Notes: generated from the sequence alone by a model not told the origin. Numbered from the stretch's first letter, positions 22,513 through 64,000 are shown. The stretch is DNA of 64,000 nt from Squalus acanthias (GCA_030390025.1 CM059431.1:130450001-130514000), one strand, 5' to 3'. Numbers and translations: made by a program.

Positions 22513-24608
22513 GGGGGTGGAATTCAATAAGACCCGAAACTGGGAACGGGCACCACAATATGAGATATGCCCACATCCGTTTAGAAAGCGCAGGCGGTAC
22601 ATCAGTTTGGTGCTGTCTGCTACTTTACATGATAGGAGCGCACAGCCGAGCAACTATCGCAAGTTAGCTTCGCTGGAGCAAGATTGCCTTTCCTTAAAAC
22701 TAGGCTGTTCGTTTGCAAGGCAGTCTCTAGCCCTTAAAGTTGAAAATGAAAATCGTTCAGAACCAGGCAGTCTGCAGCTCTTAAGCTGAACTGCCTTCTG
22801 CACATAAAAATGCTTCAGCACTAACACAAATGGCTCAACGGGCCAGGGTAAGGGCACCCGCATTTTCAGACGCAGCACTCCAGCTTTGTGCAGGGGGTCA
22901 ACACTGGAAGAGAGGTCCTCTACTCACAGGGGGCCAGGAGGCCCTCAAGAAAGAATGATGTGGGACCAGATTGCCGAGGTGGTCACTGCCAGGAGTGTCG
23001 CCCCAGGACCTGGCTCCAGTGCCCAAAGAAGTTTCATGACCTCAGGCGAGTGGCCAAGGTCAGAGAATGCATCATCAAAAGCCGTCTCCTACCAGCTGCA
23101 CCACTAGCCTCACACACTGCTCAATGCATGTCCACTCCCATCACTCACCTACCAACAATCTCTACCAAACACAAGGCACACCTCACATTCCTAGCTTCAC
23201 CTCACCCCCTTGGAGGTGACGGTACTGGCCATTTTTGGCAGGGGCATGGCTGAGCCCTTGGCCAGTGGTGGGGCTGAAAGAATACAAGATGCTGGTATCC
23301 TCATACGTTATCCTCCTTCAACACATCCCCCTACCCCCTCATCCCACAATATCTTCTGATATACAAGCTGCACATAGTGTAAGCATGCACCTCTTGCTTT
23401 TCCGCCCTCCCCTCACCACAACCCTACCCTTGTGCCTTCCTCATTTCAGACATCCAGGAAATCTAGCCTCCCCAGCTAGTGGTTGACCAAGAAGAGGGCT
23501 AGGAGAGTGAAGAAGAAGAAAAAGAAACACCGTCACTCGGTTTCACACTCCCAGTTATCAGCTCCTTGAGGTTGTCCTGCAAGGCCATCTGCAATGTCCC
23601 CCATTGAAAATCAGCAGCCTTCCACCAGCCATGCTACAGCCACTGATGTAGCACTGTGTAACATCACTAGGACAGGCAAAGGCAGATGCAAGACAGTCAT
23701 TAAGGAAATCCACAAGGGTGATTAGTTGATTTTTTTGATGTAACATTGGATGCATATATGGATAAAGTTGGATTGGAAAGTTTGCTTCGTGGTGGCTTTT
23801 ATTTCAGCATTGTGGCCAAGAGGACGCTGTGATGGTCAGTTACAGAGGGAATGTAAGATGTGGGAAAAATATTGAAAGGGAATTGGGGTTGTGTTCACTG
23901 GTACTGCAGGCGGATGATTCAATCCCGGACATCCCGGCCAGAAAGGGGCTGTCTGGTTTGCCTCCTTCCTTCTGCTTCTTCCTCTTTTGCTTCCTCCTCT
24001 TCTGCTTCTTCTTCTTCCCTCTGTGAACAGCTTGTCCCCTTTGCTGCCTCTGCTTCATCTTCAAGTAATGTTGCAGCCCAAGGGGGACTGCAACTAGAGC
24101 CCCCAGGACTGTGAGCAAGTAGTGTTCTCAGAGGCCTTCCTTTAACATCCAAAGCTTTGCAGGCATCCTACAGCACTCCTTGTACACTAACTACTTCTAA
24201 AATGTATTGCACCAAGCCACTACTCCAATAAAATGTGAAAAAAAAGTCCAAAAGCTAAAATCTAAACTTATCTGAAAGATGTGTATGTCCCTTTAAGAAG
24301 CGCTGGCAGCATCTCTGTAGTACTGCTGCACGCACGTTCTTCTGTGCGTGGTTTGGAGAGGGCAGTATCCAGAGTGGCAACATCAAAAATCACAGTCGTG
24401 CTTCAATGCAGGCGTTGCACGCCAAGTGACGTCACAATTTGCATATTTACATGTGGGCAGTGAGCGCAGCCAACAGCAGCGCTACCGACCTTCCACAAAA
24501 TGCCATACGCCACGTTCTGCACCAGAAGCAGGTGGAAGGAAGGCGGCCGCCATTTTTTCAGTAAAACTGGCCTTAACGGCTGGCGCTAGACCTCCGAATT
24601 TTGCGTTC
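22513..24608. mobile_element. Decayed, internally deleted Harbinger element
   Basis: Myb exon-1 relic on plus (~22830-23060: MAQRARVRAPAFSD...RTWLQCPKKFHDLRRVAK|GT); transposase remnants on minus (~23890-24150); termini gggggtggaattc / gaattttgcgttc. Confidence 0.7.
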
Positions 24609-31012: not shown

Positions 31013-31235
31013 TCATGATGGAGATGTGAGAAGTCGCACAACACCAGGTTATAGTCCAACAGCTTTATTTGAAATCACAAGCTTTCGGAGCGCTGCTCCT
31101 TCATCAGGTGAAGTGAAGAGATGCATATAGGCACAGCATATATAGTCAGAGAACACTGCCAGATGATTACAGTTAATCTTTCTAACTGCCCTTTATCACA
31201 CCTCGGCAGAGAGATAATCACGGCAATCACAGGTG
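31013..31235 (-). mobile_element. Penelope-like element 3' pLTR fragment
   Basis: Homologous to 62786-62915 (gagaagtcgcacaacaccaggttatagtccaacag); carries a hammerhead motif. Confidence 0.8.
31075..31111 (-). ncRNA. Minimal type-I hammerhead ribozyme motif
   Basis: UCAC-CUGAUGA-A-GGAGC(agc)GCUCC-GAAA-GC-UU-GUGA: stem I UCAC/GUGA, 5-bp stem II, palindromic stem III (AAGCUU). Confidence 0.85.
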
Positions 31236-59005: not shown

Positions 59006-60707
59006 GGCCAGAATTTTCTATACCTTGGCGGGTACGATGCAGGCGGTGACCATGTCGGGTTCTGACCCCGCTGCTGCCTCTATCCGCTGTTGAAAATGAA
59101 CTTACCTTAATGGAGCCTATTAAGCCCGCCCAGCGCATTACCTGGCCCAATGAGTTGGAGCGGGTCTGGTGACGTCATTCATGACGCATTTTGAGCCAGG
59201 ATCTTTAAAGGGACCATGGCCACATTACATTTGCAGTTTTATCTAACATAGTGCTGTCAGTGCACTACAGCATTGGAGTGCTGCAAACACTGACAATGAC
59301 TGCACAGAGGCAGAGGGCTGCACCCATGTTCTCCGATGACTCCCTCCATATGCGATGGGCGGAAGAGACCTCGCCAGGAGACCAAGACAGCCTGGTTGCA
59401 GATTGCAGAGGAGGTCACAAGCAGGGATGTGGTCAGGAGGACCTGGGTGCAGTGGCACAAACCTTTCAATTATCTCATTAGATCAGGAAACATTAGTACA
59501 AAGCCACACTCAACTGCATCCTGCTGTGCCTCTCATCACATCCACATCACTCTGCCTTCCCTACCCTACTCCTGCACATCCTTCCTCACACCAACATACC
59601 TTGCACCTCCACCCATCCCTCTCTCTCTGTCTACATTATCACATCCCCATCTCACTAGCCATCCCTCACACATGCCCTGATCCCAGTGTAATCATACCAA
59701 CTAACAACACACAAGGGTAGCCACTTGGGTTTTTTATTCAATGTTGATGTAAAGTTTCTGTTAATTACATGTCAAACATAAAAATCATTATTTTCAACAT
59801 TGGACAGATTGGTGTATACCTTTGGAAGTGGCTTAGTGAGTTGCAGTGAATGGTGAAACATAACGGTACCCCCGCAATAGTGATGAGTGTGAAAGGAATG
59901 GCTTGGTCATTGTAGGGATGCTTTATGGTGTTAGTGTGGGGTGATGCCAACCTGGTGCATCATGTGGCAGCCATATGGGTGTACAGTGTAAAGTTTACTA
60001 AATCTGGCCATGATGAGGCCATCCCTCGCCTCCCGGGCAGCAATGTGCTCGGGTGCTGATGCCTTGTGTCCTGTGCAGCATCAGGTGATTGCGGAGAAAG
60101 TTGTTGTTGTTGTTGGTGCTGTTGATGCTGAGGCTCATCGTGGTCCGATTCTGAGGATCAAGGTGAGACAGTATGAACGGCGCCCATGCTGATGGAATAG
60201 ATGGCAGGGGAAGTACAGATGACAGAAGCATTCTGTCAATGGTGAGAGAGTTCTTCCAATGAGGTGACACTGGATGGAGACTTTGCTGGAAACACTTGCA
60301 GCCTGCAGAATCTGTGCTGGAAATGGACTGAGCAACAGCTTCTGCCTGAGGAAAGTGATCATTTGCCAGGTGGGAACTTTTACTGTACATTTCATGCTGT
60401 CAAGTAATCAGCTGGAGCAATGACCACTGAACTCCCGCCTCAGGTTGACAGACGTGGTTCCCGAGCTGCGTGAATCCTGTGGCCATGCAGGGAAATTTAA
60501 AAAGTAAGTGGAAACTACCTGATAATCATTTCAATTGGGTCCCCCGCCGCTGCTGGTCGGGTTGGCTTCGCGATGACAGACGCGCCTGGGGGGAAAGAGC
60601 ATGGGAGCGAGGTGACAGCTGGTTCCTGATTCGCTGTCAAAAATGACACACTTTTCCACCTGACCTGCCACCGATCGCACCTGCTACCACCCCAGAAAAT
60701 TCTGGCC
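59006..60707. mobile_element. Internally deleted Harbinger derivative
   Basis: Perfect 14-bp TIR GGCCAGAATTTTCT with AAA on both flanks; Myb exon-1 relic on plus (~59296-59490); transposase 5' relic on minus (~59990-60190). Confidence 0.82.
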
Positions 60708-62878
60708 AAACTGTCTGTTGGTTTGGAGCCTGAATATAGGGTGTATGTTCAATCCATCTTTTCAAGAGAGGAGAATCAGATGATGGCATATCATACATTC
60801 CAGTAAATTGGCATGCAGTGCAAAGGTTGTCCATTTGATTCCTGGGTCTTATTATCATTTGCCTAGATAGTGGGCAGGGAAAGACTCAGTTGGAATTTAG
60901 GGGATGTGAAGACTACTTATTGGACTGGTTGATGACACTGAACCTAAGAAACTATCTGGTGTAAAAGCCCAAAAGCATGATGTATCTATATTATGACCTG
61001 ATCAGATGTTTTTCACATGAGGGCACTTTAGAACAAGAAGCTTCATTCTTATTTTTATTTGGAATCTAATAGTTTCTTGGTAGCTGTTTCTGCTTCTTTC
61101 CTTTGAATGGAGGATCAGTTGGTGGAAGAGGAGCAGTAGCAACAGCAACTGCCTCAGCAACCAGGAAAGCAGCAAGTGGGCCTATTATAAGAGTGCGGGT
61201 GAGGGGAGATGCATGTAGACGACCTTATTCAGCTGATAGGGTCCATAGGCCAAGAGTTAATATCTTGGTTATCTTTGAGGAGCAGTGCACGAGGAGGCTG
61301 TGCTTCACCAGGCAGGCTGTTGCTGAACTATGTAGCCTATTGCAGCAGGACCAGAGGGGCATGCTTTGCCAGTGGCTTTCAAAGTCACCACCACCCTTAA
61401 CTTTGTCACCACAGACTCCTTCCAGGCTGCTATGAGTGACATCACCTGCATCTCCCAGTCTGCAGCAAGCAGGTCACCAATGCCCTCCTTGCCAGAGCAA
61501 ACCAGTATATTACATTTGCAGTGAACAGGAACAGCCAGACTGAGAAAGCTCTGAGATTTGCAGCAGTGGCTGGCTTCCCTCGTGTCCAGGGCATAATAGA
61601 TTGCACTCATGTAGCTATAAGGGGACCAGAAGATGAACCAGCAGCTTATGTGAACAGGAAGGGCTTCCACTCCATCAATGTACAACTGGTGTGTGATCAC
61701 TGCAGAAGGATAATGCAAGTCTATGCTAGTTTCGCTGGCAACTACCACAATTCTTTCATTCTGTGATACTCATCCACCCCCCCCCCCCCCCACTTTTTCA
61801 CCCATCCAAGACCATCAAAGGAGGGCTGCTAGGGGACAAGGGATACTGATCTGCAAGAGAACAGACGACAGAAGATTAGTGACACCATCAAAGCTCCTAT
61901 CAATTTGTTCCCGCAATCTTACCAAGGTGGATGGCTGTCTTTCCAAGGTGGAGCACAAGTTTGAGCCCAGAGCCTGCATGACAGCCATTTGAGCTTCCAC
62001 CAAATCTGCAAAGGCTGGTGACATTGACTTCTGTTGTGAGAGCCTGGCTTCAGTGACACTGGAGATGGCTACGCTCTCCAAGGTAGACTGCAGAATGTTG
62101 ATCCCCTGGTAGATGACACCACACGGGCTGGAAGCGGACTCCTTCACACTTTCAACCTTTGTGGTGAAAGTCCTTGGTAGGCCTTCCAATACCTGATATA
62201 ACTGCTTGCGCGAAGCAAGCAGTTTTGTTCACATCTCTGTCCTTCTCCACAGAACTGGAAGAGGACCTCGCCCTCTGGCAAGCTCTCTCATGGACTGTCT
62301 CTGCTACCAATACCTGCTGTTGCTCACTACTGCTGAGTGCATTACCACATACAGATCTCTCTAATTCTCTAACTCATCTGGGGTTGCCAATCCCTGTACT
62401 GGTGCCTCCTCACAAGGATTCTTCTTCTCTGAGTTGCCTTCTTCTGCCAGCTGCAGAAGTTGAGAAGGACCTAGAGGAAAGAGAAAAGGAACAAAAGTTA
62501 GCATGGCAATGAGAGATTAGATAGTGGCAGATGACAAGCATCACAATGCAACAATGTAGTCAAGTTGCTTGATAATGCATTTTTCAGAGGTTTATGGCAG
62601 GGTGCAAGTAATCAGAGATCCTGTTCAGAGAAGTCTCTGGCTTCAAAATCTCCTATCCTGACAGTCAGGAGGGGCCACTAATTTCCAGCATTTGCTGCTC
62701 CAGTTCAAAGAGGTTCATGCTGTTTCTGGTGCTCCCCTAGTCTTAATCTTCTCCCTTGTGTTGTGCGCTGTCTTGTCCTACAGAGGTCATGATGTAGAGA
62801 TGCCGGCGTTGGACTGGGGTGGACAAAAATGAGAAGTCGCACAACACCAGGTTATAGTCCAACAGATTTATTTAAAAT

Positions 62879-62914
62879 TACAAGCTTTCGGAGCTGTCGC
62901 TCCTTCTTCAGGTA
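62879..62914 (-). ncRNA. Minimal hammerhead ribozyme motif
   Basis: UAC-CUGAAGA-A-GGAGC(gaca)GCUCC-GAAA-GC-UU-GUA. Confidence 0.8.
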
Positions 62915-63291
62915 GGGTAGCTGTGAGAGAATCTCCCAGAATTCACAATATAAACACAGAAAAAATGTATTCCAATCTTTCCCTACATCAAAGACACACT
63001 AAGAGCACAGCCAAGACAATGAGATGTGTCCCAGGGGGTCCAACGTGTCAAAACACCTGCTGGCCGCATATCCTCTCCATTTGGGTTTGGTTCTTGTGTT
63101 AGTTTTTTTTTTAAAAGCTGGAAAGACCGGCCATGATGTCAAGTCACGTTCTGTATCGTGACATGAACCCGATATCGCGATTGAGGCCATCCTCATGAGT
63201 GCGGAACTTGGCTATCAGTTTCTGCTCTATGATTTTGCGTTGTCGTGTATCCCGAAGGCCGCCTTTCTGGGAGATTCTCTCACAGCTACCC

Positions 63292-63327
63292 TACCTGAAG
63301 AAGGAGCGACAGCTCCGAAAGCTTGTA
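63292..63327 (+). ncRNA. Minimal hammerhead ribozyme motif (mirror copy)
   Basis: tac ctgaaga a ggagc gaca gctcc gaaa gc tt gta, read directly on the plus strand. Confidence 0.8.
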
Positions 63328-64000
63328 ATTTTAAATAAATCTGTTGGACTATAACCTGGTGTTGTGCGACTTCTCATTTTTGTCCTACAGAGAGAGAGGG
63401 CAAGAGTTAGTGAGTGTCTTCTACAAAGGAGAGTACAAATGTGTGGGGGTTTTGCATGCTGTGTAGATGTTGAGAGGGAGAAGAAGCAAGCTGGAATCAG
63501 AATGGGGAGGTGTTGAATGAAAAGCATGAGTGTGAAATGTGAATTGAGGAAGGAGCCATGAAGGGAGCAAAGATGAGGTGAGTGTCTGTTTGTAATGAAA
63601 ATGGCAGATGGCATTGTGTGTCCTTGTGCTGGGTGATGAAGGATGTGATGAAGTGGAGGGAATTGTTGAGAGTGGTATAGTATGAGGGAAGGTCTGTTGC
63701 TGTGTCTTGTTGAAAGAACTAGAGAAATGAAGAGTTGTACTCACGCTTGCTACTCTTGTGAGGTCATTGAGCTGCTTCCTGCACTGCATCCAGGTCCTGA
63801 AGCTGACAATCTCAGCATTCATTTTCCATCCCTCCTCCCATTGACTGGGAAGAGAACATCCCTCCTCTCCCTGACCTCTTCCAGCAGGACTTCCAGGGAG
63901 GCTTCAAACAACCTGGGAACTTGCCTCTGACTCATTGAAGCAGTTTCTTCTGCCACCACTCCAAAGCGAAATCTTGCAGTGCACGAGGAGGCTGTGCTTC

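Follow-up and report, generated by a model that had tools for sequence, protein, structure and literature searches.

The 64,000-nucleotide stretch of Squalus acanthias DNA analyzed here (GCA_030390025.1 CM059431.1:130450001-130514000; hereinafter, the window, with all positions counted from its first letter) almost certainly contains, between 62773 and 63392, a single 607-base pair (bp) insertion of a Penelope-like element (PLE). Specifically, this is a 5'-truncated, endonuclease-containing (EN+) PLE of the Neptune/Nematis type that combines a sense piece with an inverted, tail-less copy of the pseudo-long terminal repeat (pLTR) and is lodged in a decayed Harbinger element. So how could a retroelement come to be inserted together with an inverted copy of its own end? 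The explanation that we favor, with a confidence that only slightly exceeds an even chance, is that both ends of the staggered cut in the target primed separate cDNAs which were later fused head to head.

Anatomy of the insertion

The insertion is framed by two inverted arms of 121 nucleotides (nt) each, 62821-62941 and 63265-63385, that are 100% complementary, cannot be extended and enclose a core of 323 nt. The left arm is the 3' part of the direct (sense) pLTR, on the minus strand, and it alone continues outwards into a 35-nt tail (62786-62820, minus strand), the 3' end of the element, the outer end of which is the putative distal start site of reverse transcription. The right arm, on the plus strand, is the inverted, tail-less pLTR copy. 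The core consists of a 3' untranslated part that extends from the stop of the open reading frame (ORF) to the arm (62942-63143, minus strand; covered at high copy by family sequences in runs X2, X5 and X7) and of the end of a 5'-truncated PLE ORF (63144-63265, minus strand) that encodes the last 39 codons of the GIY-YIG endonuclease and the stop. Because the family ORF runs on behind 63265 in all four sequencing runs described below, this position is the point of 5' truncation, and the ORF end and the inverted arm have only 1 nt in common; this central joint, with its 1-nt overlap at 63265, lacks a palindrome. The position of the tail end is echoed elsewhere in the family, given that a second copy in the window (31020-31130) ends in the same CATCATGA as the focal tail and that the match in family contigs begins at 62787-62789.

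The whole unit is bracketed by a 13-mer that is found at 62773-62785, beside the tail, and again at 63380-63392; the repeat is not extendable and has no third occurrence in the window. These are the two copies of the target site duplication (TSD), a feature to which no strand applies. The right copy shares 6 nt with the end of the right arm, so that 63380-63385 are target and arm end at once. By chance, a 13-mer would be directly repeated within 10 nt on either side of both ends with a probability of approximately 8e-6, and a fixed end would show a 6-nt overlap with one of approximately 2.6e-4. Every coordinate of the initial annotation, which described a 121-bp inverted repeat without mismatch, a 323-bp core, a 35-bp one-sided extension and a 6-bp overlap, is confirmed. 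The GIY-YIG C-terminus that it assigned to the core is recovered by homology in the last 119 nt. The inverted pLTR and the tail, which it had interpreted as PLE traits, are both in place, and the focal copy accordingly displays the inverted pLTR, the 5' truncation, the tail of 30-40 bp at one end and the TSD by which PLE insertions are recognized.

The empty site and the age of the insertion

Public contigs from four of the 24 listed runs (X2, X5, X7 and X15) were aligned to the window; 19 of the 24 contain less than 0.2 of the words, X7 and X15 being among these 19. One contig of X15, from organism C (record 1; 1076 nt, depth 17.3), represents the site without the insertion: letters 31-451 correspond to 62350-62772 and letters 452-922 to 63380-63850, with one 13-mer (counted by aligned span) and none of the 607 inserted bases, and 39 of 894 letters are different (4.4%; 40 of the 63 difference rows are listed). 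In a second X15 contig, the match likewise starts at 63380. The existence, in another species, of a contig with a single 13-mer and no insert implies a real insertion and a true TSD, as the initial annotation had claimed. The depth of the flanks in the DNA runs of organism A is that of single-copy sequence (11-12 and 25-31, outermost bins), so the X15 contig is probably the orthologue of the insertion site, although a close paralogue would serve equally. The 6 nt of overlap are most likely target sequence.

Not one of 128 paired sites differs (95% bound 2.3%), compared to 4.4% in the flanks against organism C; if the insertion were as old as the flank divergence, the probability of this observation would be P=0.003. 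Conversely, the letter at 62973 is nearly private to the focal copy, with 99.7-100% of the family depth differing there (X2, X5, X7). The insertion is therefore younger than the split from organism C, yet not brand new, and the "young insertion" of the initial annotation is to be understood in this relative sense. Gene conversion between the arms could account for their identity. Being absent from organism C, the insertion is not conserved.

Identity of the element and its clade

A search with the 40 amino acids at the end of the core matched 15 proteins among 19 candidates, those that are named coming from sharks. The 643-amino acid protein P0003 is 89% identical over 38 residues (E=8e-14) and contains a reverse transcriptase (RT) domain (RVT_1, E=5e-9) with DKG and YIDD motifs; another homologue, P0004, matches Pfam GIY-YIG (E=2e-5). 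The homology of the core to shark proteins that join an RT to a GIY-YIG domain bears out the PLE identity proposed at the outset. The family thus has the single ORF with an RT and, C-terminally, a GIY-YIG domain that characterizes EN+ PLEs, and the focal copy retains only the endonuclease end. The 39-amino acid piece alone has no match in Pfam, and the core yields 0 matches in PDB.

The closest full proteins, P0003 and P0007, display the same succession of the RT or its C-terminal part, a CX4CxxC linker, two Cys within the GIY-YIG core and then two His. The linker is present in both; in P0012 one of its Cys is altered, and P0001 and P0004 are too short to contain it. Of the 15 homologues, five were examined for the CCHH signature of the endonuclease and all five have it, and the focal copy has lost this region to truncation. 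A CX2-5CxxC linker and a CCHH endonuclease define the Neptune and Nematis clades (PMC8557442; here and below, statements from papers cited by accession refer to the accessible parts of their text). The presence of this linker in the closest full proteins points to a family of the Neptune/Nematis type, and not Poseidon, with the clade being taken from the linker motif of the relatives since the focal copy itself comprises only the last 39 codons; on the same ground, the Penelope/Poseidon clade is ruled out.

Two further classes of mobile elements were considered and rejected. Miniature inverted-repeat transposable elements (MITEs) and other DNA transposons with terminal inverted repeats (TIRs) have symmetric TIRs abutting the TSD and no retroelement ORF. 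Such an element is ruled out here by the one-sided tail, the 5'-truncated PLE ORF and the variable arm lengths in other copies. A non-LTR retrozyme, composed of tandem type I hammerhead units in the same orientation, is likewise ruled out, the motifs of the focal copy being located on opposite strands and flanking ORF-derived sequence.

The exact 21-nt pLTR pattern has 0 matches in the JGI metagenomes and IMG/VR, and a protein-based scan identified one locus out of 226 candidates, a distant metagenomic relative with 61% amino acid identity (L001). In addition, the database isoforms X2 of shark XRCC5 and FAM204A (P0002 and P0010) end in the GIY-YIG C-terminus of the family; these ends are either predicted exonizations of PLE copies or annotation artefacts.

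Inverted joints across the family

The family is abundant, with 15,001 contigs aligned in X2, and inverted structures recur in it. Among the 15 joints listed (of 173), 14 connect an antisense pLTR piece head-to-head with a sense piece, none of them at the focal breakpoint; they come from three of the four runs, and four of the 14 are present in both samples of organism A. The arm lengths in these 14 joints are unequal, by -29 to +56 nt, and the overlap is 0-2 nt in 13 of them and 6 nt in one, with the proviso that a joint within a perfect inverted repeat can be placed only with some ambiguity; filler letters are frequent, being present in the 12 rows listed (of 67). Furthermore, the position 62820 is a recurrent end of the family, at which 26 X5 contigs turn into unrelated flanks (flank agreement 0.39), and the focal arm ends within 1 nt of it.

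An inverted arm is seen in one of the four PLE remnants of the window. The second copy of the same family (31020-31130, minus strand) has a hammerhead (31107) with the CUGAUGA core and a 4-bp helix I but no inverted arm, and a 27-nt deletion has taken away the end of its pLTR along with most of its tail. Another PLE family is represented by two remnants, 43242-42540 and 57020-56520 (both minus strand), each of which contains its own hammerhead-like core and also lacks an inverted arm; the former is 34% identical to P0003 over 134 amino acid residues.

Origin of the inverted pLTR

The scenario of two-ended priming can be spelled out as follows. The GIY-YIG nuclease would cut the two strands of the target with a stagger of 13 nt, and each of the resulting 3' ends would prime reverse transcription, with the pLTR end of RNA that stems from a single source element as the template. 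From the first end, synthesis would start at the distal site (the tail end, 62786) and copy 480 nt; the second end would pair through 6 nt with the RNA at the proximal site (the pLTR/tail border) and copy approximately 115 nt, after which a head-to-head junction sharing 1 nt would unite the two cDNAs. In favor of this scheme are the empty site with its one 13-mer, the homology to RT and GIY-YIG proteins, the agreement of the tailed end with the distal site (the copy at 31020-31130 ends in the same letters), the proximity of the tail-less arm end to the recurrent family end at 62820, the central joint with its 1-nt overlap and without a palindrome, the head-to-head joints of the family, and the identity of the arms at family-polymorphic sites. 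In vitro, moreover, a Poseidon PLE cleaves and extends both strands and uses two internal RNA start sites that bound the tail; uncleaved RNA is used, so that hammerhead cleavage is not needed, and the protein is predicted to be a dimer (PMC11167929). A possible determinant of the two start sites is a predicted 9-bp stem within 62807-62864 (minus strand), in which 62864-62856 pair with 62815-62807, such that the tail is bent back onto the pLTR, with the pLTR/tail border enclosed by the stem. This stem is part of the minimum free energy (MFE) structure of both the focal copy (z -1.2, not significant) and L001 (z -3.3, 0/200 shuffles, in a hand-chosen segment), and between these two sequences eight of the nine pairs are invariant, the ninth showing a one-sided change from U-A to U-G. 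It is reminiscent of the stem-loop in which the Poseidon RT starts (PMC11167929) and, with two sequences and no double change, is to be regarded as a lead only. Should the scenario extend beyond this locus, inverted pLTRs in general would result from double target-primed reverse transcription by a dimeric RT-EN, with two programmed RNA sites set by the tail-pLTR stem and with pairing to the target aiding the second priming; we offer this generalization tentatively and consider it rather less likely to be right than wrong.

Several considerations weigh against two-ended priming or weaken the case for it. The in vitro support comes from Poseidon, and the focal family is of the Neptune type. The start site of the Poseidon RT lacks homology to the cut DNA (PMC11167929), which implies that pairing with the target is not needed. 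The initial annotation had suggested microhomology at the 5' junction, and a 6-nt overlap is indeed unlikely to arise by chance; however, the end of the arm lies within 1 nt of the recurrent family end, so microhomology is not the only possible cause of that end. The recurrence itself is seen among the listed loose ends of X5 only, as X2 lists 62816 (24 of 1158 rows being listed). The arms are identical at five sites that are polymorphic in the family, which has a probability of about 0.04 by chance and implies one source for both arms, but the calculation assumes independence of the sites, and later gene conversion could also have equalized the arms. Several family joints fall within an AT-rich near-palindrome (62870-62881), one of them with a 6-nt overlap, as expected under self-priming. 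The 32 pieces listed (of 32,000, in four runs) all fail to span the focal junctions, and the flank contigs of X2 and X5 end at 62750/62488 and 63390. Finally, a single locus is unable to reveal the order of events.

What, then, are the alternatives? The most serious one, although in our view distinctly less probable, is a fold-back in which the cDNA stalls at 63265, jumps to itself or self-primes on an antisense template, copies the pLTR and is joined to the target by the 6-nt microhomology. This scenario explains both the identical arms and the overlap (approximately 2.6e-4 by chance) in one step and fits the family joints at the near-palindrome; moreover, in rotifer PLEs, inverted junctions with palindromes and a 5' end joined through microhomology have been reported, and antisense self-priming has been proposed for their inverted copies (PMC3846280). 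In the focal copy, however, only 1 nt would be available for pairing at the jump and 323 nt would have to be looped out. Furthermore, fold-back offers no reason for the arm to end at the recurrent pLTR/tail border and not elsewhere, and inverted pLTRs that lack just the tail are the reported rule (PMC3846280, PMC8557442). A variant of two-ended priming would combine a stagger of only 7 nt with a start programmed to lie at the pLTR end, the 6-nt overlap arising by chance. Homology is not needed in vitro (PMC11167929), the published PLE TSDs are 8-10 bp (PMC3846280), and in a family as abundant as this one (15,001 contigs in X2) some copies would be expected to show a chance overlap; nevertheless, given a chance of approximately 2.6e-4 for any single copy, we regard this variant as improbable. 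As for the possibility that the inversion is an assembly artefact or the product of two separate insertions that were later homogenized, PLE inverted structures do trouble short-read assemblies (PMC8557442), and the listed organism A pieces fail to span the focal junctions. But the whole unit is bracketed by one TSD, the empty site is clean and the head-to-head joints of the family recur in three of the four runs, four of them in two samples, which makes this explanation very unlikely.

The hammerhead motifs

Each arm contains a minimal type I hammerhead motif with the core CUGAAGA...GAAA, in keeping with the CUGANGA/GAAA/UH pattern of this type, one at 62879-62914 on the minus strand (C3 at 62911, H17=U at 62882) and its mirror at 63292-63327 on the plus strand (C3 at 63295, H17 at 63324). 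Helix I is 3 bp long, helix II has 5 bp with G10.1-C11.1, an extra A follows A9, a palindromic AGCU replaces helix III, and the cleavage triplet is CUU. The traits of minimal PLE hammerheads, namely, an extra base between 9 and 10.1, G10.1-C11.1, a palindromic 15.2-16.2 segment, a short helix I and no helix III (PMC4209133), are all recognizable here, and the same anatomy is found at 31107 and in L001. In the published pairs of such motifs, the two members occupy opposite strands and are separated by 100-700 bp (Cervera and de la Pena 2014, PMC4209133), a range that includes the 413 nt between the focal H17 positions; the 3-bp helix I compares to 4-5 bp in Schistosoma and 2 bp in D. virilis (PMC4209133). 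The anatomy thus upholds, on both strands, the initial proposal of a minimal hammerhead in each arm. The Rfam covariance models that had been suggested as a check (Hammerhead_1) do not corroborate it, with no hammerhead family matched up to E=10 by either motif of the focal copy or by the copy at 31050-31130. In L001 (945-1095), TATA-like and initiator (Inr)-like motifs are kept just upstream of the hammerhead, and the 21-nt block behind it differs from the shark family in one position despite the 61% protein identity.

Could the hairpin with its two-way ribozyme be a working RNA device, either an antisense-masked ribozyme or a source of double-stranded RNA (dsRNA)? The initial annotation envisaged a ribozyme in a transcript of either strand that could be masked by dsRNA, and this masking is indeed predicted: a transcript of either strand would form a 121-bp duplex, in the MFE structure of which 38 of 38 ribozyme nucleotides pair with the other arm, at a predicted cost of 24 kcal/mol for freeing helix II. 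The helices of the hammerhead are intact, with one compensatory pair each in helices I and II over three sequences, a level of covariation that is not significant (64/500 shuffles), and an isolated arm folds no better than shuffles (z 0.2). The palindrome is able, in a predicted co-fold, to pair between two motif copies. However, single minimal hammerheads do not cleave and dimers do so little (PMC4209133), and a dimer-dependent motif that is present at one copy per strand and transcribed after its own antisense is unlikely to be active in place. Taking into account also that the host gene is decayed and that the insertion is absent from organism C and hence not conserved, we find a working device scarcely credible; the masking would be a by-product, and the hammerheads are most likely passengers that are silent at this locus. 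In run X7, taken by guess to be RNA, the element is covered and most unique flank bins are without depth; A>G differences occur at 5 places in X7 compared to 9 and 8 in the DNA runs, counts that come from contigs only and are uninformative on expression or editing.

The host site: a decayed Harbinger Myb/SANT gene

The insertion is located at the splice acceptor of a dead Harbinger Myb/SANT gene on the minus strand, as the initial annotation had stated; this is supported by the intron position and the exon start of a better-kept paralogue at 49017-48400 (Myb_DNA-bind_5, E=1.3e-9), which has an intron at the same phase-0 place and a similar exon start. The intron (63385-63744, minus strand) has its donor GT at 63744, the same position as in the paralogue. 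The exon upstream of it (63745-63920, minus strand) is disrupted by a frameshift, a stop and a deletion. With tblastn, it aligns to the paralogue in two frames (E=1e-5 and 4e-4); this exon alone has no Pfam match, and pairwise BLASTP against the paralogue at 59372 gave no alignment. The start of the next exon (62715-62777, minus strand) has a stop at codon 21, its likeness to the exon start of the paralogue being judged by eye. A transposase fragment of the host element is detectable at 61440-61766 (plus strand; DDE_Tnp_4, E=2.9e-9).

The original acceptor AG, at 63386-63385 (minus strand), lies inside the right TSD copy, so that the acceptor was duplicated by the TSD. The original copy now opens into the inverted arm, where 11 codons are followed by a stop, whereas the pyrimidine tract of the second copy is the weaker one (15/23 compared to 19/23). 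Because the host gene carries a frameshift and stops elsewhere, this duplication has no evident consequence, and the gene was likely dead before the insertion.

The window is dense in Harbinger remnants, with further decayed Myb/SANT copies at 59300-59500 (plus strand), 49017-48100 (minus strand) and 22850-23060 (plus strand). Upstream of the Myb exon, the last 25 nt of the window (63976-64000) exactly repeat 61282-61306, in the Harbinger transposase region; a local duplication or rearrangement may begin here.

Comparison with known systems

The locus itself is minor, a dead stub in a dead transposon, and its structure is ordinary for its class, each architectural element being already in print. 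An inverted pLTR, a 31-bp tail and a 9-bp TSD have been presented as the typical structure (Arkhipova et al. 2013, PMC3846280), and the same inverted-pLTR scheme has been given for PLEs in general (Craig et al. 2021, PMC8557442), where the making of tandem and inverted PLE repeats is still called unexplained. The value of the locus is that of a fully resolved integration record, with the empty site, both ends and the center, which makes it a test case for PLE insertion. Beyond what is in print, the evidence permits a single step, namely, the explanation of inverted pLTRs by double priming with the tail-pLTR stem; we did not find this account in the literature searched, a coverage that leaves out most subscription papers. 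If true, double priming would replace antisense self-priming and would extend the rule of two start sites from Poseidon to Neptune. The stem is a concrete RNA element that is open to mutation in an existing in vitro assay, and, the family being abundant and recently active in sharks, thousands of integration records could computationally separate two-ended priming from fold-back.

In the twin priming of L1, reportedly described by Ostertag and Kazazian in 2001, the second target end is said to pair with the RNA and to prime an inverted cDNA, so that the two cDNAs meet head to head; the inverted part reportedly corresponds to a more upstream portion of the same RNA, without a repetition of the 3' end. 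The focal element is unlike this in that the same 121 nt were copied twice, which requires either two pLTR templates or a fold-back.

Among PLEs, one close likeness is to Pen2a_Av/Pen2_Av, in which a 5'-truncated copy and an adjacent inverted, 5'-truncated copy are both contained inside the TSD (PMC3846280). The one-sided tail is 31 bp there and 35 bp here, and in both cases the TSD is proven by an empty site. The TSD is 8-10 bp there as opposed to 13 bp (or 7 bp plus the 6-bp overlap) here; that system is a rotifer Penelope, whereas the present one is a shark element of the Neptune type with no palindrome at its central joint. The Poseidon element of Anolis, PAc (Frangieh et al. 2024, PMC11167929), is a further close system: two RT start sites within a stem-loop delimit its tail, cutting and extension take place on both strands, and the hammerhead is not needed for insertion. 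PAc belongs to another clade, however, inverted pLTRs are not dealt with in its description, and its RT start is non-homologous to the target, in contrast to the 6-nt overlap in the focal copy.

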